Origin: Synechococcus sp.
GTDB taxonomy: Bacteria; Cyanobacteriota; Cyanobacteriia; PCC-6307; Cyanobiaceae
Direction of reading: 5' to 3'
NCBI GenBank assembly: GCA_047284725.1
Contig: JBJBEO010000001.1
Span: forward strand, 1,112,203 to 1,176,202
Length of the DNA: 64,000 bases
Shown: positions 5,284-47,298 of the stretch, in pieces
Numbering within the stretch: position 1 is the first letter of the stretch
How the letters are laid out: the number at the start of each line of letters is the position of its first letter
Position numbers and translations under genes: made by a program
The notes under the pieces: generated by a model
Told to the model about the DNA's origin: nothing
Databases searched by the model: none
What the model saw: only the letters and a program-made list of their open reading frames with translations

Positions 5284-7104
5284 TCAGAGTTTTGCTGCAT
5301 AGTCAGGGTCAAAGGGACTCAATTTATGTTTGCCGAGCATGCATGTTAATCCTTGTTTCTCGTAATTATTATCTTTAGATAAATAATAATCTGGAGGCAT
5401 TGGCAAGCCTAGTCCAAATCCTTGTGCATATTGAAAGCCGAGTGTTTGCATGTGTTTTTGATGGTCTTGTTTTTCAATGCCCTCTACGACAACAATCATG
5501 TTGATTTTTTCTGCGATCATTGCCATCGCCTGAAGGACCGCAGAGTGCTTGTCATGTTTCAATGAATCTTGAAACAGCTTCTGGTCAATTTTAAAGCCTT
5601 GGATCGGTAGTTCCAGTAGTTGGGTGAAGCCTGTAAAACCGCTACCAAAATCATCCAGTAAAATTGTCATTCCTGCTTCAACCAGTTGGAGGACCTCTGA
5701 TCGAAGGTGATCGAGATTATCAATAAAGCCTGTTTCTGTTATTTCAATGATAATTTGCTTGTTGTTGATCCATCTCGCATTTTGGATTTTTTGAAGGATT
5801 AATCGGGCCACTCCATTCTTTTTCAGCGTTAGTGCGCTTAGGTTGATGGAAAGTCTGTCCTTGCTCCTCACAATGTTCTCAATGCCATTGCAGGCAAGCA
5901 CGGATTCAAGTACAATCTGGTCAATTTCGTTGATGTTGTTCGATGATTCGAAGTACTTGACAAAGTCTAGAGGTGGCAAAAGCATGCCATTGTTAGACAA
6001 TGGTCGCATCAGAACTTCGTATCCGATGCATTGCTCGAGTCTTAGGTCAAAGATTGGTTGTAAGTGAAAAGGGATTTTGCGCGTTTCTATGATTTTTTTA
6101 GCGCTCTCTCGGATTAAATGATTTTTTGCACGGGTGATTTCAAGGTCTTTGCCGTAGTAGTGAAGATGATCAGCATTTTGTTTGGCTTGGTACATCGCAT
6201 TATCAGCTTGGCTAAGCAATTCTTTGGGAGAATTTGCGTTGTAGCCTAAGCTCGCACCGGCGCTTGATCTGACTCGAATCGAAATTTCTTGATCGCCACG
6301 GTTCACTTTGATTGGTATTTCAGTCAGCTTGGTGAGCCTCTTGATGATTTTGTCGATCGATGATTTTGCATTCTTGGTATTGATTTTGCTGGCAACGATG
6401 ACAAACTCATCGCCAGACAATCTTGAGACGACATCGCATTGTCGTGTTGCTTCAATTAGTTTGTCTGAGAATTGTTTAAGCACTTTGTCGCCAACTTCAT
6501 GGCCAAAGCCGTCATTGATCTCTTTGAATTTATTGAGGTCTAAAAAGATTAAGCCAATGGAGTCTTTTTTGCCCTGTGCGAACTCTTTTTCTAGATGCCT
6601 CGTCAGGCCTCGTCTGTTCAATAAGCCTGTCAGAGAACATGTGTCGAGGCTGTCTTGGAGGTTGTCGATCACAATGAGGTGATCAGTATTTTTCAAAACA
6701 ACAATTTTCGTATTTAATTCAACATTGATTTTTTTAATCTCGCATTCGTAGTGGCTTAATCCTGCCTCACTCTTAAGGGTTATGTTGAAGTTTCCTTCAG
6801 ATAGTTTGAGTAGTGGCTCAAGATTGGACTCGTCCTTGTCTTTCGACAACCGTCTATCTGGTTGATCGTGGTGCGCATTGATGAGTGGAGCCAAGCAGGT
6901 TGATATGTTTTGGCCAAGCATGAATAAGCGAGACTTCATCACCATTTTTTCAAACGAGTTATTGCACCACTCCAAGTTGTTATTTTCGTCGAAAATAATA
7001 ATTGGTTCGTCGACCTTGGACAAGGCAGATTCAAGCCTCGCCAGGGACCTGCGTAGCGGCTCAATCAGATTGTCTGTGCTTATTTCAAGGCTATCCGGTG
7101 TCAT
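5284..7104 (-). CDS. PAS-GGDEF-EAL diguanylate cyclase/phosphodiesterase
   Basis: LTGLLNRR, DLNKFKEIND, RQCD I-site, SGDEF; EVL, EITE, DDFGSG, EGIE, QGF; AT-rich. Confidence 0.93.
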   Translation of the reverse strand: MTPDSLEISTDNLIEPLRRSLARLESALSKVDEPIIIFDENNNLEWCNNSFEKMVMKSRLFMLGQNISTCLAPLINAHHDQPDRRLSKDKDESNLEPLLKLSEGNFNITLKSEAGLSHYECEIKKINVELNTKIVVLKNTDHLIVIDNLQDSLDTCSLTGLLNRRGLTRHLEKEFAQGKKDSIGLIFLDLNKFKEINDGFGHEVGDKVLKQFSDKLIEATRQCDVVSRLSGDEFVIVASKINTKNAKSSIDKIIKRLTKLTEIPIKVNRGDQEISIRVRSSAGASLGYNANSPKELLSQADNAMYQAKQNADHLHYYGKDLEITRAKNHLIRESAKKIIETRKIPFHLQPIFDLRLEQCIGYEVLMRPLSNNGMLLPPLDFVKYFESSNNINEIDQIVLESVLACNGIENIVRSKDRLSINLSALTLKKNGVARLILQKIQNARWINNKQIIIEITETGFIDNLDHLRSEVLQLVEAGMTILLDDFGSGFTGFTQLLELPIQGFKIDQKLFQDSLKHDKHSAVLQAMAMIAEKINMIVVVEGIEKQDHQKHMQTLGFQYAQGFGLGLPMPPDYYLSKDNNYEKQGLTCMLGKHKLSPFDPDYAAKL

Positions 7105-7466
7105 GGTATTGGTTTCAAATGAGCTCCGAAGTACCAGTCCTCACCTTGCTTTTCAGCAACAATATAGTGCTCTGAGTTGATTTCTTCTCCGTCGGCCCGT
7201 AGGGCTTTTAGATTTAATGGGTGGCCGACAACCTGCGAATTCTCTGGAGAGCTGAAATTTGAGAAGGCTAGGTGGTGTGACATCCTGAAGACTTCAGGCA
7301 GCACGAGGTCCAATGTTTTTCCTTTGATGTTAGTGATGTCCCAGCCAAAGCACGTCTTAAACTCCTTGTTGACATCAATAATCAGACCTTGATTGTTGAC
7401 CATGATGAATGGTGTGTTCTCGTTCGACATGCCTTTGAGCACTCCTCCTTCGGGATAATTGCTCAT
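7101..7466 (-). CDS. stand-alone PAS domain protein
   Basis: PAS-like IIDVNKEF...FGW...LVLPE...H...RADGEEI; stop overlaps GGDEF-EAL start. Confidence 0.85.
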   Translation of the reverse strand: MSNYPEGGVLKGMSNENTPFIMVNNQGLIIDVNKEFKTCFGWDITNIKGKTLDLVLPEVFRMSHHLAFSNFSSPENSQVVGHPLNLKALRADGEEINSEHYIVAEKQGEDWYFGAHLKPIP

Positions 7467-7782
7467 TGGGTCTAAGGCCTCACAGCTTCTCTATTCAAAC
7501 CATAGGCGAAACGATTGGTGATGGGTTTATCGATTTTTTGAAACTTAATGACTTGCGATAGTGCCCGTTCGCTTTAATTTATCTTTAATATCATATCGTT
7601 GATATGACTGCCTTGGGTAAGACTGCGCTCTGTTGGGTGTCGTTGTTAGGGGTTTGACGCTTGTCAGTCTTGGCTTGAGAGGCCATCCGTGTTGATGCGG
7701 AGCGGGTCGCTCGGTCCTTGGCTCTGATCACGCCCGAGATGCCATTAGATCAGACCGCTTCCAGTTAGGGTCTCGCCCCGCT

Positions 7783-7938
7783 CTAGGGCTGGATACGGAC
7801 TTCTGCTGGGCTTGTGGATGAGCTTCCCGTGCTTCTGCGCGGATCGTTTCCATTGCGCCAGGGTGTGAACAGCAGAAAATTGCCCATCACCAATCCTGTG
7901 GTGACGATCACTGCAAACAGCTGTTCCAGGCGGTTCAC
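7783..7938 (-). CDS. small membrane-anchored hypothetical protein
   Basis: GTG start, single hydrophobic segment LFAVIVTTGLVMGNFLLF. Confidence 0.4.
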   Translation of the reverse strand: MNRLEQLFAVIVTTGLVMGNFLLFTPWRNGNDPRRSTGSSSTSPAEVRIQP

Positions 7939-8302
7939 GTTGGCCCTGCACACAGCTCCACACAGCTGATCATGCTGTGTCAAAGCCCGACTCTGCTTGG
8001 GAAGCAGACGATTTGTTGAGGTGTTGGCACCAGGCAGTGGGCTGGCTAGGTGTGGATTATTCCACGTTTTGCAGTGGTGTCATGTCTGTGATCAAGCCGG
8101 AGGATCAGCGTCCGAAATTGGAGCGGATGGCCAGGCACTGGCCGCGGAACCTCCAGGAACACTGGCACGTGGATGAAAGGCGACGTTTGAATCTCCCCGC
8201 AACACTGCTGTCTGAGTCGATCAGACTTGGCTCAGGAAGCAGGGTTGCGACCAGATCGTTCGGTAAGCGCAAGTGCTATCTGGTCCCTCCCTGTTGAGTA
8301 GA

Positions 8303-8557
8303 TCACTGATCTGTGGTGGCTCGGAAGGCTTGAACAGTCGTGCTGGATGCACTCCAGTCAGCCGTCCGAAACGAGACTTCCTGTCCGCCAGCGCGCTTCA
8401 GATCATGCATGCCCTCAAGCTGGTTGTAGATCGAGACAAGCTGGCGTTGGATATGGTCCGTGTGGGGAAGCCCATTCAGCGTATGGAGCGCCCGCTCAAG
8501 GCTCCCTTTGGCTTCGATCAGCAAGCGACAATCCTGACTACCCGGTTCGTAGGCCAT
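8303..8557 (-). CDS. hypothetical protein (MAYEPGSQDCR...)
   Basis: protein-like helical C-terminal part of ORF 8303-8800. Confidence 0.6.
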   Translation of the reverse strand: MAYEPGSQDCRLLIEAKGSLERALHTLNGLPHTDHIQRQLVSIYNQLEGMHDLKRAGGQEVSFRTADWSASSTTVQAFRATTDQ

Positions 8558-8633
8558 TTGTCCGTGGTCGATCCTCCTATTCACCCGTGAGTTGGATGGT
8601 GATGGTGTGCCAAGCGACACCATTCCCTGCCCT

Positions 8634-9227
8634 TCATTCAGCCATTCCTCTGTCTCGTTGGGCTTCCTTGTGGTCCCAGGGGCGGGGAATGCCATCGGGC
8701 ACGCTCCAGACCCCCAGCCGCTCAGCCTTCGCCTTGGCTTCCAAGGTCTTATAGAGAAGATCGTCGCAGCGACCGAGGTGGCCATCGCGGACAAACGCAT
8801 GTCCCTGCCGGATCAGGGATTCGCCAATATCACCACGGGAGATGTTGGGGTTTGTCTGGGACACGCGATCAGTGCGTGGAAGCAGACGTCCCACCAGTCG
8901 TCCTTCAACATCCCTTGCGCGTAATTCCAACGTGATCTCCGTTCCTTCGGGGAGGAGTTCTCTCAAGGCCGCCGTCGCTTCGCTCGCCCACGGCTGTTGA
9001 TCAGGTCTCGGGGCAGCGAGGCAGCTCAGCTTCACCGCGCGACCTTGGCCTCGGCTTTCCACCAGAACTTCCTGGCCGTCATTCACCCTCAAGACTCTGA
9101 CCACTTCACGTGATTGTTGATTGGCTGCCGCCGTTGAGGCCAGAGCTGCTGCGAGGACGAGGCCCGTGAGGGCGCCCCTTCCCCACGGCTTCAAGGGGTG
9201 ATGGAGCCTTTGCATCAGGAGATCCAC
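8634..9227 (-). CDS. thermonuclease (SNase-like) family protein
   Basis: signal peptide; VNDG, RDVEGRLVG, AKAERLGVW motifs. Confidence 0.85.
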   Translation of the reverse strand: MDLLMQRLHHPLKPWGRGALTGLVLAAALASTAAANQQSREVVRVLRVNDGQEVLVESRGQGRAVKLSCLAAPRPDQQPWASEATAALRELLPEGTEITLELRARDVEGRLVGRLLPRTDRVSQTNPNISRGDIGESLIRQGHAFVRDGHLGRCDDLLYKTLEAKAKAERLGVWSVPDGIPRPWDHKEAQRDRGMAE

Positions 9228-38296: not shown

Positions 38297-38791
38297 ATGA
38301 ACGAGCCATGGCCAGATCTCAGATGGCATTCCTGCCGACTGCTGCGCGGCCATGGTGTTGCGTCAGGCCATGCCAATCGTGACCCTCTCCGCCCCGATTC
38401 GCCCTATCCGGCTGGCACCATCACGATGCAAGCCCCCTTGTTCGCGGAGAGGGGGCTCGATCTTTCCCCTTACTGGCCCGGAACTCTCAACGTGTCCTTT
38501 GCACCCAAGAGCGTGGTGTTGAGAGACGCAGATCATTGCTTTCCCCATCTTCGTTGGACACCCTTGCATCCACCTGAAACCTTTTCGTTCTGGCGCGTGG
38601 TGTTGCGGCGAATCAGGTCATCGCAGGAGCTGAGTGGCTTGATTTATTTCCCCCACCCAGAGACCAAGCAGCGCCACTGGCAACCTCAGTCTGTGGTGGA
38701 AGTTCTCGCCCCATGGATCGCTTATCTTGATCCTCAGGAACCTCTGGCGCTGGGCGTCAGTCAACGTCAATTTTCGTTGCTGGATGCTTGA
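38297..38791 (+). CDS. hypothetical protein
   Basis: GHGVASG, SPYPAGTI, HPPETFSF, PHPETK. Confidence 0.8.
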   Translation: MNEPWPDLRWHSCRLLRGHGVASGHANRDPLRPDSPYPAGTITMQAPLFAERGLDLSPYWPGTLNVSFAPKSVVLRDADHCFPHLRWTPLHPPETFSFWRVVLRRIRSSQELSGLIYFPHPETKQRHWQPQSVVEVLAPWIAYLDPQEPLALGVSQRQFSLLDA

Positions 38792-39300
38792 TCGTCCAGT
38801 TCAAGATTGAGGGCCTGGGCTGTGGACTTGTCAAGTTGTGTGCTGATCCATTCAGATGCATCCAGCCGAGCGATCGCATGGATTTAAATATTGATTGGAA
38901 GCCGTTGGGGCGAGGAGGTCATGACTCCAGATTGGATTGGTGTGGCTGCGTTGTTGTTGATTATCGCCACAATCACTGCTGTTGGTTACCTGGAAGGGCA
39001 TTCAATGCTCTGACGCCTCGAAGCAGTGCTGTCAGCTCGTAGTCCTTGAATCAGTTTGTCTTGCAACCTGACCAGCAAGCGTTCCATTCTTGATGCAGGT
39101 GTTTTGTGGTCAGAGAGTTGTCAAAACCACGCCACGTCTTGTCTGCCTGTTTGTCCGTTGCCATCAGTGACACCAGCAAGTCAATGGCTTCGTCGGCTGT
39201 GACGCGTCGCCCTGAGGGTGTTTTTGGCAGCAATTGAGCGCCTCTTTGCGCCAACACGGCCAATCGAATCGCCACAATGGGGGCCGATCAACGGAGCACC

Positions 39301-39964
39301 ATGGTCAGAAGCCCTGCTCCCTGGTTGGCCCTTGCCGCCCTGTCTGCAGCAGTGACCGGGTGTTCTGTCTTAACAGGGCGTGTTCCAAGTGTTTGCAAGG
39401 CGTTTCCTCTTTGCTCGCCTGCTGTGTCGACGTCGACGCCGATTAGCAAGGCAAGCCGCGAAGCAGCTGCAGGAGGCCACCCATCTCCGCAGCTACCGCA
39501 GAGCCGCGGAGGTCCTGGACCGTGAACTGATCCAACTCAGTGAAGGTCCTCTTTCTCCAGGCGAGAAGCGTGAGGTCGACCGACTGACGTCGCTCAACCG
39601 AACAGCGCAGATCGTCGTGCTGGAGGAAACCAAGGCCCAGGCCAGCCTGGATCGGGCCAGCGACGCCATCACTGCGGCATCCAGGCTGAGGGGTGCAGGC
39701 CAACAGAGGCAGCTGGCGCAGGCCAAGGATCTCCTGGTGCAAATCCATGGCCGCAGTTTTGCCGATGAGCGATCACGGCGGCTGATGCAGGAACTGGAAC
39801 GCCTGATGGCTCAATCCGAACTTGAGGTTCCGAAGGACCCCAAACAGGAGCCAAGCAAGGCTGGGGATCCTGTGGCTCCACCGCAACCAGCCTTGCCTCC
39901 ACCAAGTCAAGGCGATTTGCAGGGCGGTCAGCCAGACGGTTGGTGGGACAAGCCCCTCTTCTGA
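39301..39964 (+). pseudogene. frameshifted lipoprotein gene
   Basis: lipobox VTGC in one frame, helical body in the +1 frame from about 39450. Confidence 0.55.
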
Positions 39965-40025
39965 CGCCACGTTGAATCCAGGAAGGCCTGGCTTAATCTC
40001 TGGGTCCGATGGATTCGTGGGGCTT

Positions 40026-40595
40026 GTGCGTCAGAAAGCTGGTGTGATTGCAGGTGTCGCGCTATCAGCAGCTGCCTCTTGGCTCTCTGTGGAGCCGGTT
40101 CTGGCCGGAGCCAGCGCACGGGGGTTTGTCTGCGGTGTCGCCAATGGTGCTCCAGCCACCAACGCCCTGAAAGCTGATGGCACGCAGATCCCTGTGATCC
40201 GCTGGACCAGCAGCACGTTCACTGCTGCCGGCTGGGGTCCGCAGCGTCGCTGCGAGGAGGTGTCCGAACGGTTCGACACCTATCTCAAGCAGGGACGTCT
40301 GGCCTACATCACCACAGGACGGATGAATCGACTGCCTGTGATCTGTACAGCAGCGAGCAAGCGTGGCCCCTGCGATGGCTTGCTCTACACCCTGAAGCCT
40401 GGTCAGAACGCCACCGCCACGTTGAAGGACTTGTTGCAGATTCGGGTCAAGGCACGGGGACCACTGAATGAGACCAGTGGCAGGCTCTACGTGAGTCTCG
40501 ATGAGCTGATGACCGCGTCCGAGGCCAGCACCGATGCTGTGATGGCACCCGAGCTCTCAGACACGTCGACTCAGCCCACGACTCCCCTCTGGTGA
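40026..40595 (+). CDS. COP23 domain secreted protein
   Basis: FVCG, VIRW, PQRRCEEVSERF, TTGRMN..PVIC, LLYTL. Confidence 0.85.
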   Translation: MRQKAGVIAGVALSAAASWLSVEPVLAGASARGFVCGVANGAPATNALKADGTQIPVIRWTSSTFTAAGWGPQRRCEEVSERFDTYLKQGRLAYITTGRMNRLPVICTAASKRGPCDGLLYTLKPGQNATATLKDLLQIRVKARGPLNETSGRLYVSLDELMTASEASTDAVMAPELSDTSTQPTTPLW

Positions 40596-40906
40596 GGCTG
40601 TGCCGGAAGGTCCGCCGTGTGGCCAAAACAACGTTCGTGATCCCTTCACAGTTGTCTTTCTTTCATTCAGGAGGACGCGTCAGTCGTCGTTGTGATTGCT
40701 CGGTTCGTGGCCATGGGGTTCCAACACTTTTCGCCAGACCCGGCGAGGGTGCTTACCGCAAGGCATGGACTTGATGCGTGATTGTGTGATTCGATCAACG
40801 ACTGGTCTGATTGGATTTGCGCAGCTTCATCAGGTGATGCAGCTTTTGTTCGGCAGAGCTGTCGCTGCATTTCAGGGCTATGTTTTGAATCCTGTTGGCA
40901 TTCTCA

Positions 40907-41332
40907 ATGCCTGAATCGTCTTGCTTGAGCTGGCCTCAGTTGTTCAAAAGGGCAGCAACGAAACCGTTTGACTATCGGTCAACCTCATCAAGGGCTGAGT
41001 ACTGGGTCTTTGTGATTTCCATGGCAGTCGTGCAGGCCATTGTGTCCATGATTGTCACCATCGGTACGGCGTTCTATGTCTATGCCTCCACGGCCCCTGA
41101 AAGCATGGGTTCCGAATCGTCTGGGCTGATTTCGGTGGGAGTCCTTTTGTCGGTTGTAAGTGTGCTTAATTTTCTGATAAGCATCTATATCATTCTTGCT
41201 ACATCTGCGCTTGCCAACCGACGACTGAGAGACCTCCAAATGAATACCTGGTTGACGCCCTTGTTCCTGATTCCTTGCCTGAATTTTATCCTTGCGCTTG
41301 TTTACTTCACGAGGAAAAGGGCTTTGGCATAA
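40907..41332 (+). CDS. DUF805 membrane protein
   Basis: SSRAEYW, RRLRD, LIPCLN. Confidence 0.85.
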   Translation: MPESSCLSWPQLFKRAATKPFDYRSTSSRAEYWVFVISMAVVQAIVSMIVTIGTAFYVYASTAPESMGSESSGLISVGVLLSVVSVLNFLISIYIILATSALANRRLRDLQMNTWLTPLFLIPCLNFILALVYFTRKRALA

Positions 41333-41457
41333 CCGCTTGAATCGGCATCTCGGACTGCTGGAGTGCTGATTGAGCGACATATTCAGAAGCCTGGCACGAA
41401 TGGACGACTTTGAATTCAGGTTCTGCGCGATCGTCGTGGGTCGCTTACAGTTGTCAT

Positions 41458-41501
41458 GAGCGAAGCGAGTGGAAGCTATTCGGTTGATCCAATTGTTCTG
41501 C
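41458..41501 (-). repeat. truncated attC (first arm only)
   Basis: minus strand GCAGAAC-AATTGGATCAACCGAATAGCTTCCACTCGCTTCGCTC just after the stop; no returning arm. Confidence 0.5.
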
Positions 41502-41508
41502 TACACCA

Positions 41509-41970
41509 TTAGTTGGAATGACCTTGATTGCCGTACCAACCTCCTGTGTCACCCCCAATCCAAACTTTATGTTTGAATTGGGGGAAATATTCATGACAAA
41601 GACTTAGGATGTTATCGTCTTTAGTTATGTTGTCGCCCTTTTTGTAACCTTTTGGGTAAAAGATTCTATCAATATATTTGCCTTGTACTCTTATCTGGCC
41701 GATGACGTAAATTCCATTGCCTACCCCGTATACGGAGCCTTCTTTTTGCTTTGTGTATACTGCTACATATCCACCGTCAGCTTTTGTGTAATGGTTAATT
41801 GTAGGCAATATTCGTCTTTCGAGGCCTGGTAAGGGATAATTGATTGCTATATTTTCCTTTACGTAAACTTTAAAATCACGTGGCAAAAGATTGCTTGTCG
41901 AGATTCGAGGATTACCAGTGCAGCCTAGTGTAGTGAGGCTAAGTGCAATGAAGAGTGTCAATTTTTTCAT
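41509..41970 (-). CDS. cassette-borne lipoprotein of unknown function
   Basis: MKKLTLFIALSLTTLGC lipobox; AT-rich. Confidence 0.8.
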   Translation of the reverse strand: MKKLTLFIALSLTTLGCTGNPRISTSNLLPRDFKVYVKENIAINYPLPGLERRILPTINHYTKADGGYVAVYTKQKEGSVYGVGNGIYVIGQIRVQGKYIDRIFYPKGYKKGDNITKDDNILSLCHEYFPQFKHKVWIGGDTGGWYGNQGHSN

Positions 41971-42101
41971 ATTTTTTCTTTCTATTTTGTTGAAAGCTGC
42001 CCCGCAGTGGCAGGCAGAGAGTTTGTAGTGGCGAAGGAAGAAGATTATTGTTGGTGGTCTGCCTACTTGAAGGACTTGTTCGATGCCCATAAAGGCTAGG
42101 G

Positions 42102-42419
42102 CTAGATCTCGCCATCGACTAAGAAGAGGCGCCTCTGAAACCCGCCTCGCGTTTCGGCCTTTTGCCTTCGCACGACCTCAAGCTCCTCCAAGGTATGGCC
42201 CTTGGCCACGCAGAGAGCGCGGATGACTTCAAGGGTGTCTGCCAACTCCTGAATGTCGCCACTACTCTCGGAAACCTCGGTGACCTCTTCGTGGAGTTTT
42301 GCAATGAGTTGTGCCACGTATTCGTCGTCGCGCAACTCCCGGACGGTGCATGCCTTTCCGGCAGCTTCCATGACCTCAGGGATTCGGTCGCGGACAAGCT
42401 TGTTGTAGGTCTTTCGCAT
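42102..42419 (-). CDS. MazG-like all-alpha NTP pyrophosphohydrolase
   Basis: YNKLVRDRIP, EEVTE...ELAD, RGGF. Confidence 0.9.
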   Translation of the reverse strand: MRKTYNKLVRDRIPEVMEAAGKACTVRELRDDEYVAQLIAKLHEEVTEVSESSGDIQELADTLEVIRALCVAKGHTLEELEVVRRQKAETRGGFQRRLFLVDGEI

Positions 42420-42427
42420 CTAGAGGC

Positions 42428-43462
42428 TTACAGCAGGGAGTTGGCGACAAATGAGTTCGCTGGTCGCCAGCGACTTGGTATCGCGTTGATAGCGAGCTGG
42501 TCGCATTGCTGAAGGAAGCTCGCGCGTTTCTGCTTGGTGGCACCGGTCTGCGCAATCAGCGTCTCGCGGAGTGGGTGGTGGCTGTCTATGAGCCAGTTGT
42601 TCCTCACGTTCAGGCGCTCAAGGTACTCGATGTGTGGGATGAGGTCGAATTTTCCACCTGGGCCACGGTTGCACTCTGTGCAGGCCAGAACGAGGTTCCA
42701 TACACCGTCGATATTCAAGCCACAAAACGGCTCGGCATGGTCGAGTCGCTTGGGGAAAAAGTGGTCGACATCGGCGTCCAACGTCTCACTACGGTCGATG
42801 GTGATTGGTTGATGGCAATAGAAACATGTGCCTTTCTGATACCCGTTTAAAGCATCGCGCACTCCGGCTATTGACACCCGACGAGTTGCGTCAGTCGCGA
42901 TGAAAAGCTCGCCAATCTCAATGTCTGTTCTTACTTCCAACACGCGCGAAGGCACTCCAAGGTTCCAGGCCGTCTCAACTAGACGCCATCGTGCTTCCGC
43001 CTCTAGCGCCAAGCTGTTGGCCTGCGTGTCCGCCATGAGTCGTCGAAACTCTTCAGTGAGCCGGATTCCTTTGGCTGTCGCACGCTCGTCGTGGAAGAAC
43101 CGAATTGGTACATCTGAAGAGCCGACGATGTGAAATGCATCGATGACATTGTTGAAGCCACGCCTGACGGTCTCCATGCGTAGTTGATCGGCTGAGAGTT
43201 CGCCGCGGTTGAAGTTGCGACAGGCGTCGAGAAACACGCTTGAGCGCGAGGTCGCTTGTCGATCCGCGGAATTGAGGTGTCGGGCGATCTCCCGAGCGAA
43301 AGGTACCGCGAGATCATCAAGGCGGACGAGGTCATCGGTTGCTGGGGCGAGCTCAACCAACGAGCGAGCGAGGGCAAACTTGTATGACGCGACGTTTCGA
43401 CCAAAAAGGACGATCGCCCGCCAGCAGGATGCGGGATTCGGCTTGCTCTCAATGAATGTCGT
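42428..43462 (-). CDS. HNH endonuclease (canonical start missing; ACG at 43462, first TTG at 43360)
   Basis: in-frame WRAIVLFGRNVASYKFALA upstream of the called start; CFYC, VDHFFP, WNLVLACTECN. Confidence 0.85.
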   Translation of the reverse strand, partial: TTFIESKPNPASCWRAIVLFGRNVASYKFALARSLVELAPATDDLVRLDDLAVPFAREIARHLNSADRQATSRSSVFLDACRNFNRGELSADQLRMETVRRGFNNVIDAFHIVGSSDVPIRFFHDERATAKGIRLTEEFRRLMADTQANSLALEAEARWRLVETAWNLGVPSRVLEVRTDIEIGELFIATDATRRVSIAGVRDALNGYQKGTCFYCHQPITIDRSETLDADVDHFFPKRLDHAEPFCGLNIDGVWNLVLACTECNRGPGGKFDLIPHIEYLERLNVRNNWLIDSHHPLRETLIAQTGATKQKRASFLQQCDQLAINAIPSRWRPANSFVANSLL

Positions 43463-43515
43463 GGTCGAGGCGCTTCGGATGCACCCCGATTCTACTTAAG
43501 CCGCTTTCTCGATGC

Positions 43516-43596
43516 TTCTAACGCCCAAGCTGTGCGGCGCAAACGAAGCGCAGCGTAGTTTGCGTCCGAACGAGCGGAACGAGCGCCTTGTTAGCT
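43516..43596 (-). repeat. attC site
   Basis: minus strand AGCTAAC...GTTAGAA with inner IR GCAAACTACGC/GCTTCGTTTGC; contains the upstream gene's stop. Confidence 0.88.
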
Positions 43597-44438
43597 ATTT
43601 TTGAATACATGATTTCGATGGTGCTCCATATAACCCATTAATCTGCTTGGCACCTTCCTCAATTTGAGATTGCCAGCCAATCCAAGTTTTCAATGTCATC
43701 TTGTGATAGTTGAGGGGAAATCATTGCTATACCGGCTTCATCGAATGTGATTAGTCCCAAATCAAACAAGTGATCTAATGTGGGTTGCAATAACAGCCCA
43801 TTCATTGGGTCAAGACGCTCTTGATTGGATGAATCTCTCCACGGTTTGATATGCGAGGCTCGAACCACAGAGAGATTGCCTAACCCAGTAACTGAGCAAC
43901 TTCCCCATACTTCAACTACACCATCCCTGAACAAGCCCTGCCCGATGCGACTCTTTACGATTGATTTTTTTTCAGTTTGATCTAGCGATTTGAATTCATC
44001 CTTGTGCGCTTCGATATCGTCAAACATGTCTGGACGTTGACTTTTGTTCCCGACCGAAAACACAAATTGACTGGGTGACGAGCTAAGGCGGCGATGTTCT
44101 TTTAGATGAATCTGTCCGCAATACACAAATGGCGTATGATGAATGTCTCGATAAAAGAGGTGTATTTCATCATTCACAGACTCTGCATTGATCACTCTGT
44201 TGTCTGATGAATGCTTTTCTTCGCCTTCTCAGTGAAGCAGCTCGCCGTCTAAATAATCATTGTATTGAGTTAGTGCTTCTTGTTTTTGTTTTGTGACAAA
44301 CAGGATGATGTATTTAGTTCCTGATGGCGTTACAACGCCCCTGGAAATAGCCTGAAACCCTTTGTAGCCCCAAATATCAGCCAGGGATGGCCGCTCATAT
44401 TCTTGCCCAATTTTCAGTTTTTCAAGGCTGACTGGCAC
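43591..44438 (-). pseudogene. N-terminal domain + HNH endonuclease cassette gene, disrupted
   Basis: in-frame TGA at 44229-44231; RIGQGLFR, ASHIKPW, NGLLL..LDHLFDLGLITF; frameshift near 43688 restores YMEHHRNHVF and a stop inside the attC. Confidence 0.85.
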
Positions 44439-44454
44439 GGTATTTCCTTTTGAT

Positions 44455-44612
44455 GGCTAACAGTGTTTCGGCGGACAGTAGAAGTTGCTAATAGTTGATT
44501 TTTTGCTGCATAAGCTGGCAATGGCAGCTTTCCCCCAAGATCAACACCCCAGCTCTAGCAACAATTTTAGCGGATTCCACTCCTCGCATGGATTGTTATG
44601 CGGACCGCAAAA
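44455..44612 (-). repeat. 158-bp attI-like element, copy B
   Basis: ends in GTTAGCC just before a cassette; end-to-end similarity to 45215-45372. Confidence 0.65.
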
Positions 44613-44707
44613 GCTCTTCAACGCTTGGTTGCTTAGCTGAAGGCCATAATCCTTATGGAGACCATTTCAAGTCATTCATATGGGGCGATTGTTGGTCGCT
44701 TAATGGT

Positions 44708-44809
44708 GCCTAGCGCCCCGTTTAGCGGCTTTTTATAGTTGGCTAAAATAACGAACGCAATGAGGGAAGCCAACTATTAAAAGTCCCAGCCTGCAACGCC
44801 TTGTTATAT
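44708..44809 (-). repeat. attC site (R' degenerate: GCTAGGC)
   Basis: minus strand ATATAAC...; inner IR ATAGTTGGCT/AGCCAACTAT; overlaps upstream stop. Confidence 0.85.
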
Positions 44810-45208
44810 GTGTTGAACACCATTCCATCCATTTCGGTTTATGATTTTAAACTTTGAATCGTCTTTGCTGTAGCAACTAGACTTTAATGATGAAAAGTCT
44901 AGGTTGTTTCGCGGAACCTCAAAGTATTCAAAAACCTTGTTGCCATCGGTAGCAACCAATAAAGTAATACCATCTAGTGTGTGAATTTTACTTTTTGTCT
45001 CGATGTCGAACTTAAAGCCTATTAGATCTTCCGCGCTTTGGTTGTTTGAATAAGGTGTAATTATGCAAACTTGTTTCCAGTTCCCTCTTATCTCTATTGA
45101 TAAGTCGACAAACTCTTTTGAATGGTCAAAAGTTCGTTCTGGAGCTTCGCCCACCTTGGAGCAAGAAATCAATAATATCACTAAAATAACAGTCAGACAC
45201 TTATTCAT
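44804..45208 (-). CDS. first cassette: putative lipoprotein
   Basis: MNKCLTVILVILLISC lipobox; AT-rich; between GTTATGT and an attC. Confidence 0.8.
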   Translation of the reverse strand: MNKCLTVILVILLISCSKVGEAPERTFDHSKEFVDLSIEIRGNWKQVCIITPYSNNQSAEDLIGFKFDIETKSKIHTLDGITLLVATDGNKVFEYFEVPRNNLDFSSLKSSCYSKDDSKFKIINRNGWNGVQHI

Positions 45209-45214
45209 AAACAC

Positions 45215-45372
45215 ACATAACAGTCTTACGGCGGTCCGCACAAGCTGCCGCCAGGCAGCTTATGCGGCAAAAAAATCCGTTTGAATCACCTCTCAGGAAC
45301 CAATTACCTACTTTTAGCAAGACCACCGCACCCCATCCAAGCCCGGCTTGGTTTGTTACCAGGACCGCAAAA
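45215..45372 (-). repeat. 158-bp putative attI platform, copy A
   Basis: starts 11 bp after the intI stop and ends at G/TTATGT of the first cassette; contains hairpin 45236-45267. Confidence 0.65.
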
Positions 45373-45383
45373 CATCCTCGGGT

Positions 45384-46358
45384 TCAGAGCAAGTCCGCGG
45401 GACTGCGGACGACTGATGGACCGCGATTCAGCACATGGGTGTAGATCATCGTGGTCTTCACATCGCTGTGACCCAGCAGCTCTTGAATCATGCGGATGTC
45501 GGCTCCCTGCTCCAGCAGGTGTGTGGCAAACGAATGGCGGAAGGTGTGGCAGGTGGCTGGCTTGCTGATCCCCGCCGCCTGCACGGCAGCACGCACGGCC
45601 CGCTGTACCAGGCTCGGATCCAGGTGGTGTCTCCCCTCCAGTCTCTGCCGGGGACTCCGCCAACGGCGGCATTAGGGAAACAGCCATTGCCAGGCCCATT
45701 CCCTCGCCGCATTTCGGTATTTCTTCTCCAGGGCATGGGGGAGCTCCACCGCACCCCAACCCGCTGCCAGATCGGCCTGGTGCACACTCCTCACGTGCTG
45801 CAGGTGCCGTTGCAAGGGCTCCACCAGGCTCGAGGGAAGCACGGTGCGCCGGTCCTTGCCTCCTTTGCCGCAGCGCACCGTGATGCAGCACTTCTCCAGG
45901 TCCACATCCTTGATCCGCAGCCTTAGCGCCTCCATCAGCCTCAGTGCACTTCCATAGAGAAGCTGGGCCACCAGGGCCTCGGCTCCGCCCAGATGGCCAA
46001 GCACGGCCTTTACTTCATCCACCGTCATCACCACGGGAAGGCGCGCCCGTCTGCGGGCTCGGATCACACCCTCCAGGTTCCCCACATCACCACCCAGCAC
46101 CGTGCGATAGAGAAACAGCAAGGCCGCCAGCGCTTGGTTCTGCGTGGAGGCACTCACTCTCTCCTCTGTCGCCAGATGACTCAGGAACGCATTGATCTCT
46201 GCCTCCCCCATCTCACGCGGATGACGCATCCGTTGAAAGCGCAGGAATCTCCGCAGCCAGTGCTCATAGCTCGACACTGTCCGGCGTGCGTAGTGCCTCA
46301 CCTGCAGCTCTTCCCGGTAGCGCTGGATCAGGCCCGGCGGCTGGTTCGGGTTGGCCAT
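45384..46358 (-). pseudogene. intI: integron integrase with single in-frame TAA (45672-45674)
   Basis: SASTQNQAL, LYGSALRLMEA, GKGGKDR, IntI insert [49 protein letters not shown]; both ORFs in the same frame. Confidence 0.95.
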
Positions 46359-46510
46359 CGATGGGGTGTCTGCGCAAAGGGAGTGTTCCCCCACTTCGAC
46401 AATCATCAGCAACAGCTGTTCACAACATGGATTGGCGATACCTCCCTGCGCCCCGCCTGATACGCCTTGCTAGCGATTGGGCGGCTCCGAGAACCGTTTT
46501 TGCCGTCGAA

Positions 46511-46905
46511 CATTGCCATTCCCATTCACGCTCGGCTGGGGTATTGGCGACCTAACGCATCGGCAATCAGGACCTGCCCCCAACCGGCCTTTCGATCACG
46601 CTGGTGAAACTTGCGAACATCACTTAGATGGCGTGCCAGTGCTGGGAACATGCTTTGTGGCAAGAGCGTCAGTCGATCCTTCCCCCCTTTGCCATCGCGC
46701 ACGCAGAGCTCTCGCCGCTCGATGCTGATGTCTTTGACGCGCAGGCTTAAGGCCTCCATCAAGCGCAACGCACTGCCGTTCAGCAATCCCACCACCAGCC
46801 TTGGTGAACCCTGCAGTGTCGCGTTCGAGCCCGGATGACGGAATCCAACACCAAGGGTTTGCCGAGCAGTTCGCGATCGAGAAACAGCACTGCAACTGGA
46901 TTGGG
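46511..46905 (-). pseudogene. intI: degraded second integron-integrase fragment
   Basis: LFLDRELL..VIRAR / GSALRLMEALSLRVKD, GKGGKDR, GWGQV, REWEWQ across several frames. Confidence 0.85.
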
Positions 46906-47079
46906 GCCTCCGTTGGCTGTCATCGTCTGGGCCGCTGGCCAGGAGCGGATTGCTGTTGACCGATGCAACGCTCCTCCTCGTCGGCCATTGCCTAGAGCGC
47001 AGCAACGTCTTCTCGGTCCACAACCACGTGCGAGACGGTTACGGTCTCGTCGTGAGGTCCGGGGTTTTAGGGAATTGCC

Positions 47080-47298
47080 ATGGCACTGAGTGAGGAAGAA
47101 AGACTCAGGACGCGCCATCGTCTGCTGGAGTTCCTCAAATTTCGGGTGCTTGCCGCAGAGGATCAGTTTTTTGATGACCGTTCCCCCGATCAGCGTCGGC
47201 AATGGTTGAAGGGTCTCTTCCCTCAGGCCCTCTGCCTCTCGGATGAAGACCTGGACCAGGTCTGGCAGCAGGCGTACGCCCTCTACGGCTGTCACTGA
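47080..47298 (+). CDS. small hypothetical protein
   Basis: [13 protein letters not shown] helix; 72 aa. Confidence 0.7.

Follow-up and report, generated by a model that had tools for sequence, protein, structure and literature searches.

Integrons in which the integrase gene (intI) shares the orientation of the cassettes, the inverted-integrase integrons, are the closest described relatives of the locus reported here. This group, of the Treponema denticola type, is said to include Synechococcus, Chlorobium, Kuenenia and Blastopirellula. The available portions of PMC4889954 and PMC3575428 describe it, the former as paraphyletic, and trees in the available portion of PMC3607928 place a Synechococcus intI with Treponema. 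We analysed a stretch of 64,000 nucleotides (hereafter the window; G000:C1:1112203-1176202) of the complete 2.58-Mb genome of Synechococcus sp. (G000), in which the original prediction had placed a reverse-orientation chromosomal integron at 41458 to 46358. Its remark that such integrons are reported from Cyanobacteria agrees with this literature. Positions are window coordinates unless marked G000:C1 or with the L-number of a locus.

The window locus shares the layout of the inverted-integrase group: its intI is co-directional with the top strand of the attC sites and with the cassettes, and the 3' end of the gene lies next to attI. Unlike the group, the window copy appears decayed, with a nonsense codon, three damaged attCs and about four to five cassettes. 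Judging from the layout and the literature, the window intI would belong to the inverted-integrase clade. We confirmed that the locus is a chromosomal integron of this kind, and very probably it is a sedentary one that is now frozen and decaying. The integron interpretation is thus supported, although the original prediction missed the decay, the fact that the layout seems usual in the family, and two further integron remnants in the genome. The layout itself is already known and nothing known is overturned; what the locus adds is a well-dissected example from a poorly described branch of integron diversity.

The sedentary integron of Vibrio cholerae provides the closest solved integrase (VchIntIA, 2a3v). 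The attCs of Vibrio and of the window share one architecture, made up of R''/R' boxes and 5/6-nt spacers, with a top strand that has bulged bases in its 5' arm. On the other hand, in the V. cholerae integron intI and the cassettes diverge, the cassettes number about 100 or more, the attCs are highly uniform and the integrase is active. Cassettes beside an inactivated intI also characterise the CALIN elements and intI pseudogene remnants, as named by IntegronFinder in the available part of PMC4889954, and an intI-less module of attI, cassette and attC at 1.754 Mb in the window genome is CALIN-like. By comparison, the window intI keeps its full length and has just one nonsense codon, which would place the locus at the very start of the path from complete integron to CALIN. 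Finally, the Delta-attI-type cassettes of class 1/2 mobile integrons, as presented in the available part of PMC12901181, resemble one element of our array, unit U, which is likewise bounded as a cassette and has an attI-type site, not an attC, at its end. U differs from them in having no open reading frame (ORF), in carrying a full-length attI copy and in residing in sedentary cyanobacterial integrons.

Integrase, attI and layout in the family

The ORFs 45672-46412 and 45384-45596 lie in one frame and are parted only by a TAA codon, so the integrase ORF is not intact. Read through this codon, the protein scores 457.7 bits against the integron-integrase model TIGR02249 (cut-off 265) over profile positions 2-313 of 315, while the XerC, XerD and XerA models stay far under their own cut-offs. 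The best solved relative is VchIntIA, with 283 bits over the full length (residues 13-322), against 115 bits for XerA. All catalytic motifs are present in the translation and the alignment, including the GH..Y motif, and the IntI-specific segment ALEKKYRNAAREWAWQWLFP aligns with VchIntIA. An Xer-type protein would have spoken against the integron; by sequence, this one is an IntI and not an Xer.

The 170 nt past the intI stop align with the intI 3' flanks of 13/13 relatives, all of which end in ..CCGCC.AA....GTTAG, and the corresponding window region ends at G|TTATGT (45221-45215). In this region (attI-1), a motif of the GCGGTCCGC / GGACCGCC type occurs twice in direct orientation; in the alignment of relatives, a GGTTAYCGGAYCCGC-type motif stands at the start of attI, with a second copy just ahead of the conserved GTTAG. 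We take this region to be the attI site adjoining intI, and the first cassette boundary of the original prediction would be its crossover.

On the minus strand, read 5' to 3', the locus comprises an intI fragment, a remnant of an attC 5' half, intI, attI-1, a lipoprotein cassette with attC2, unit U, an HNH_2 cassette with attC1, a cassette with an HNH ORF and a pyrophosphohydrolase-like ORF followed by attC3, and a second lipoprotein gene (Table 1). All five cassette ORFs are co-oriented with intI. The ORFs, the attI homology and the layout in relatives bear out the proposal of a minus-strand intI with same-strand cassettes beyond its 3' end, and the predicted gene order (lipoprotein, short remnant, HNH, HNH plus MazG-like, lipoprotein) holds as an order. 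The four predicted boundary heptamers are likewise exact on the minus strand: GTTATGT (45215-45221), ATATAAC (44803-44809), GTTAGCC (44455-44461) and AGCTAAC (43590-43596).

An IntI above the TIGR02249 cut-off occurs in 48 of the 201 family genomes sampled (G000 included), covering 20 of 64 genera, and within the genus in 4 of 41 genomes. Around 20 kb surrounding intI were taken from 13 relatives. A pattern found 21 repeats of about 85-100 nt in these loci, all downstream of intI and on its strand, with the invariant ends CTAAC...GCGTTAG. In these 21 attCs, 92% of the cells are paired and 10 of 21 pairs show compensatory changes; none of 500 shuffles reached the observed score, and slid controls gave 29-42% pairing. 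Two bulged bases lie on the 5' arm of these sites, which by canonical attC geometry identifies the strand as the top strand. A covariance model built from them, without any window sequence (R1), gave 41 strong matches (27.9-78.9 bits, of which 21 are its own seeds) in 11 of the 13 loci, all 41 downstream of intI and on its strand. Two of the 13 loci had no match, and none of the 13 had one in the 5 kb upstream of intI. R1 also read these sites weakly on the opposite strand, in six cases. In 11 of the 13 relatives' loci with attC matches, there is an intI-strand ORF that ends at an attC.

With all 41 strong matches downstream of intI and on its strand, the suggested comparison with the arrays of related strains shows the co-directional layout to be the norm in this family. 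Co-directional IntI arrays are common in picocyanobacteria, and the family has in common an attI of roughly 165 nt and structurally canonical attCs. As a separate observation, the same-genus genome G109, which has an intact intI, carries six ORFs between its six attCs (L036 6100-10630), and every one of these ORFs runs antisense both to intI and to the attC top strand; the cassette ORFs of the other relatives are co-oriented, unlike those of G109.

Table 1. Features of the integron locus and its surroundings in the window
Feature	Position	Strand	Evidence or remarks
Variable island relative to congeners	38594..47122	.	Flanks ~0.3-1 kb apart in same-genus genomes; Pfam
Second intI fragment, profile positions 113-209	46511..46893	-	TIGR02249 89.8 bits; repeats D4, D5, D7; BLAST to G358 and G223 intI
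Remnant like 5' half of attC2	46451..46472	-	82% identity over 22 nt; repeat D8; between intI fragment and intI
intI, putative integron integrase, full length, one in-frame TAA	45387..46358	-	TIGR02249; translation; alignment to 2a3v
Nonsense codon TAA in intI	45672..45674	-	Aligned with Ser of 'LFPS' in VchIntIA
attI-1, from intI stop to crossover G|TTATGT	45215..45384	-	Alignment to relatives; inverted repeat I1
Cassette 1 ORF, putative lipoprotein (signal peptide and LISC lipobox)	44804..45211	-	Translation; no family match; GC content ~0.37-0.42
attC2, R'' ATATAAC holding the ORF stop, 15-bp terminal stem	44708..44809	-	R2 10.2 bits, E 1, exact coordinates
Unit U, putative ORF-less cassette, ~95 nt plus 165-nt attI copy (44455-44620)	44455..44712	-	Direct repeat D3; G358 homology
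HNH_2-family nuclease ORF (restriction-enzyme-like), in-frame TGA 44229-44231	43659..44438	-	Pfam PF13391 6e-12; PADLOC HNH PDLC04132 2e-25
attC1, R'' AGCTAAC, R' GTTAGAA, 5/6-nt spacers, two bulged bases on 5' arm	43516..43596	-	R1 10.8 bits; R2 18.1 bits
HNH endonuclease ORF, 310 aa	42428..43360	-	Pfam HNH_4; PADLOC PtuB-like matches 27 bits
Small ORF, NTP pyrophosphohydrolase-like (MazG / PRA-PH-like), same cassette as 310-aa HNH	42102..42419	-	Pfam PRA-PH E 0.14; Atlas 0.95
attC3, decayed, R'' ATCGAAC kept, R' TTTCAAC against expected GTTCACT, L' pairing lost	41985..42092	-	Homology to G223 attC
Last co-oriented ORF, putative lipoprotein (LGC lipobox)	41509..41973	-	Translation; GC content ~0.38

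The attC sites of the window

attC1 and attC2 have their ends in common (TAACAAGGC...GGGCGYTAG). This two-ended pattern matches twice in the window genome, both times at this locus, and in none of the 400 other family genomes; a reversed-pattern control gave one match in the 401 genomes. In a collection of one genome per species the end pattern marks at least 127 stretches, and many of its matches stand in multi-copy arrays of Colwellia, Cocleimonas, Blastocatellia, Shewanella, Treponema and others. Because R1 recognises many of these sites and also neighbours that the pattern had not selected (100 matches at E<=0.1 in 79 loci), the pattern marks genuine attC ends. The starts of two window cassettes are complementary to their own R'' at six of seven positions, and such complementarity is the expected signature of a cassette.

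The window sites score marginally with attC models, and the case for them is carried mainly by homology to attCs in the arrays of relatives, from which they appear to be degenerate attCs. The arrays of G358, G223, G146 and G022 contain homologs of attC1 and attC3. Over 95 nt, attC3 shares 72% identity with a G223 attC (L186 5743-5834), which R1 recognises with 34.5 bits (E 6.9e-8), and attC3 also matches L042 and L041; its R' has TTT in place of GTT. At attC2 the R' junction reads GCTAGGC and the homologous junctions of G358 read GTTAGGC, that is, GCT for GTT at the crossover. attC1 carries an exact 9-nt tandem duplication (CGCTCGTTC x2, 43568-43585) in its 5' arm that its G358 homolog does not have. 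With one copy removed in silico, both strands of attC1 fold into a canonical hairpin (bottom-strand z score -3.1) with a paired R box, an unpaired spacer and an L box with two bulges. The unconstrained native fold of attC2 is modest (z scores -1.2 and -2.4). We attribute the low model scores to these visible lesions: the duplication in attC1, GCT in attC2, and TTT together with the lost L' pairing in attC3.

A broadened covariance model (R2) was built from 94 attCs. It ranks attC1 first among its 17 window matches (18.1 bits, E 0.0069) and attC2 third (10.2 bits, E 1), while a match at 41989-42084, over attC3, ranks eighth (8.0 bits, E 4.4). All three matches fall on the minus strand at independently predicted coordinates; by our own arithmetic, chance would give about 0.45 R2 matches on this strand of the stretch concerned. 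A search with R2 across the genome put attC1 best among the 150 of 1693 candidates that were scored, and a stronger site was found elsewhere in the genome. Separately, R1 gives 16 bits and R2 gives 14.6 bits to a 58-nt site far from any intI (G000:C1:916438-916495).

Several points weigh against our interpretation. The fully independent model, R1, has no significant match in the window or in the genome: attC1 is its top window match at 10.8 bits (E 0.73) and 44708-44809 is missed. R2 is partly circular, as 15 of its 94 seeds were first found through the end pattern derived from the window, and attC2 taken alone has an E value of 1. The covariance-model test named in the original prediction therefore gives a mixed outcome, with attC1 first under both models and attC2 recovered by R2 alone, at its exact coordinates. 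The native attC1 folds no better than its shuffles (z scores +1.3 for the top strand and -0.1 for the bottom strand). There is no recognisable attC after the last lipoprotein gene, so the distal end of the array is undefined. The TAA in intI might stem from the assembly and not from a mutation, the comparison being with other strains only. Finally, cassette genes might be expressed by transcription from the intI side, a route that is unsupported because a scan of 41300-46600, U included, for sigma-70-like promoter consensus sequences found none against 4.4 expected; cyanobacterial promoters may escape such a scan.

The marginal attC scores might instead be taken to mean that the locus is not an integron, but a horizontally acquired defence island beside an Xer-like recombinase, its hairpins being due to chance or to repetitive extragenic palindrome (REP)-like repeats. 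The island indeed also holds non-cassette genes, and an energy-only scan of R-box-flanked hairpins returns many equally stable decoys. We consider this explanation scarcely credible, and it is already contradicted: the cut-off of the IntI-specific model is exceeded by 190 bits with the Xer models under theirs, attI, attC1, attC3 and U all have homologs inside the integron arrays of relatives, and the two-ended attC pattern is confined to this locus among the 401 family genomes.

Hairpin energy taken by itself was not discriminating: the scan for AAC...GTT-flanked hairpins ranked 43516-43596 first, with decoys in coding regions nearly equal. A terminal attC candidate at 41327-41426, proposed by the same scan, is absent from the R2 matches at E<=10 and was rejected.

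Unit U and the decay of the array

The "short remnant" of the original prediction is a conserved ORF-less unit rather than debris, with copies in G358 and elsewhere in the window genome. The junctions that bound this unit, U, are of the G|TTAGGC type at its start and CTG|TTAGCC at its end. Over 270 nt it shares 80% identity with a unit of the array in the congener G358 (L184 8807-9074), which likewise follows an attC there; G358 also contains another full copy, and a partial copy immediately behind its attI. In the window genome, the attI-like part of U is also found beside a degraded intI at 382 kb and at 1.754 Mb. A DNA search for U in 200 family genomes at E<=1e-5 gave no match outside G000; G358 was outside that sample.

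From its boundaries and content, U appears to behave as an ORF-less cassette with an attI-type site. Copies or relatives of it number three in the window genome and three in G358, each with different neighbours, and these differing neighbours suggest that U may be mobile. We tentatively propose, as a possibility that we ourselves hold to be doubtful, that U is a mobile "attI cassette" whose site is a full copy of the lineage's attI, and which could move within and between arrays and plant extra integration points. To our knowledge, no such attI cassette has been described for sedentary chromosomal integrons, and our literature search gave only the Delta-attI-type resistance cassettes of mobile integrons. 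This recurrent attI-bearing, ORF-less cassette is the only element of the locus with some claim to novelty.

The 1.754-Mb locus, which is integron-related and lacks intI (G000:C1:1754330-1757000; L187 ~6330-8995), contains the remnant of an attI core, a U-like unit that includes a copy of attI (6465-6623), an ORF (6644-8920) for a 758-aa P-loop NTPase of the KAP family, and an attC that is well formed (8924-8995; R2 24.4 bits, E 5.6e-5). Its neighbours are of restriction and defence type, namely Mrr, a type I restriction-modification S subunit and an HNH_2 paralog. The intI at 382 kb (G000:C1:381936-382886) is heavily degraded, with fragments that span profile positions 39-313 and a TGA; an attI-like element (381936-382011) directly follows its stop, and no convincing attC was found within 12 kb downstream of it.

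By analogy with the integron family, a working copy would have functioned as follows. intI would be transcribed toward attI and the co-oriented cassette array, and circular cassettes would be inserted by IntI at the G|TT crossover of attI (45221/45220), while cassettes would be excised by attC x attC recombination between folded single-stranded attC sites. The junctions suggest an array history in which intI and attI were once followed by U, the HNH_2 cassette, the cassette with the HNH and nucleoside triphosphate (NTP) pyrophosphatase genes, and the lipoprotein gene. The low-GC lipoprotein cassette (cassette 1) would have been the last arrival, inserted at attI ahead of U. The element would then have frozen, with a nonsense codon in the integrase, all three attCs damaged at folding or cleavage positions and one cassette gene broken; an older intI copy would have been left upstream only as a fragment. 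This fragment has the same orientation as intI and is about 77-79% identical to the copy of intact length.

Position 45674 reads A>G, giving CAA for TAA, in X1, X2, X3 (2 contigs) and X5 (1 contig), and the CAA codon thus occurs in two near-identical isolates and in marine metagenome contigs. Since these read CAA, the TAA is probably private to the window genome or to its assembly. The two isolates belong to the same organism, and their contigs span 43400-46498 unbroken, with 15 substitutions but without gaps. As no gaps are reported, they have the 9-nt duplication of attC1 too, and no difference is listed at the TGA of the HNH_2 gene. Hence no cassette seems to have been gained or lost since the window strain and the two isolates split.

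Taken with the TAA in intI, the TGA in the HNH_2 gene and the older intI fragment, the lesions in the three attCs indicate that this copy is decaying, and it no longer looks able to move cassettes. The element may be at an early stage of decay toward a CALIN-like fossil. We also weighed the opposite, that the integron is still active, the TAA being an assembly error or tolerated, and that attI-1 or the attI copy of U can still receive cassettes. The CAA codon in the isolates, which differ by the 15 substitutions over 3.1 kb and have intI otherwise open, would favour activity, as would the intact catalytic motifs. A metagenome contig, X5, points the same way: it matches 44456-44663 and diverges exactly at the cassette junction 44456, just after U, as expected if other cassettes stood behind U; at a depth of 3 this is weak, and it hints that other neighbours of U exist in nature. 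Activity in the window strain is argued against by the lesions, as every resident attC has one and a 19-nt segment inside attI-1 is inverted relative to five other copies, and also by the isolates, whose array is the same down to the 9-nt duplication, without cassette turnover since the split. We therefore regard continued activity as improbable and favour a frozen, decaying integron.

The locus would then be an integron caught at the moment of its death, with sister strains that keep an intact integrase over the same frozen array. Together, the window strain and its sisters could serve as a natural pair for the study of how fast arrays fossilise.

Cassette genes and genomic surroundings

The cassette genes, two HNH nucleases and an NTP pyrophosphatase-like protein, along with the KAP NTPase at the sister locus, fit the notion of integrons as putative stores of defence genes. 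The frame of the HNH_2 gene continues through its TGA (read as X). The original prediction placed gene stops inside R'' boxes. This stands for cassette 1, whose TAA occupies 44804-44806, and fails for the HNH_2 ORF, whose stop at 43659 lies 63 nt ahead of R''. A frame ending at a TAA within the R'' of attC1 is open for 33 codons only and does not continue the HNH_2 ORF. The "MazG-like" designation of the small ORF 42102-42419 has partial support, from the weak Pfam PRA-PH match and from an Atlas feature match to NTP pyrophosphohydrolase clusters, with 28 of 30 matches belonging to the pyrophosphohydrolase set. The HNH endonuclease of the same cassette has 5001 homologs at E<=1e-10, some of them named McrA or HNH endonuclease in the source. 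Counted from its first start codon it has 310 aa; of the 120 homologs listed, most are about 335-350 aa long, and a 93%-identical one is 352 aa long; its N-terminus may be truncated or its start miscalled. The two lipoproteins gave no BLASTP alignment with each other, and we rejected the idea that they are paralogs.

The island around the integron is missing in congeners: in at least 19 of 25 genomes of the genus, a distance of about 0.3-1 kb separates the flanks. The GC content of the array varies between 0.37 and 0.58 across 41.4-45.3 kb against about 0.6 in the flanks; this low GC, with the absence of the island from congeners, supports a foreign origin of the array. No tRNA lies within 30-55 kb that would link the island to a tRNA gene, and Rfam gave no family at E<=1 within 38-48 kb. 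The integrons of G109, G223 and G358 occupy other chromosomal sites, and no gene flanking the integrons of the 13 relatives is common to the window locus.

On its left side (38.6-41.3 kb), the island contains genes that lie on the plus strand, have a normal GC content and are not cassettes. Among them, on the strand opposite to the array, are a homolog of the circadian oscillating protein COP23 (39822-40595), of which G109 carries a copy at another site, and a DUF805 membrane protein (40895-41332). The 3' end of the second lipoprotein ORF contains a near-perfect 14-bp hairpin with a 5-nt loop (41552-41584; inverted repeat I23), to which R2 gives a weak match (41559-41577, 7.4 bits).

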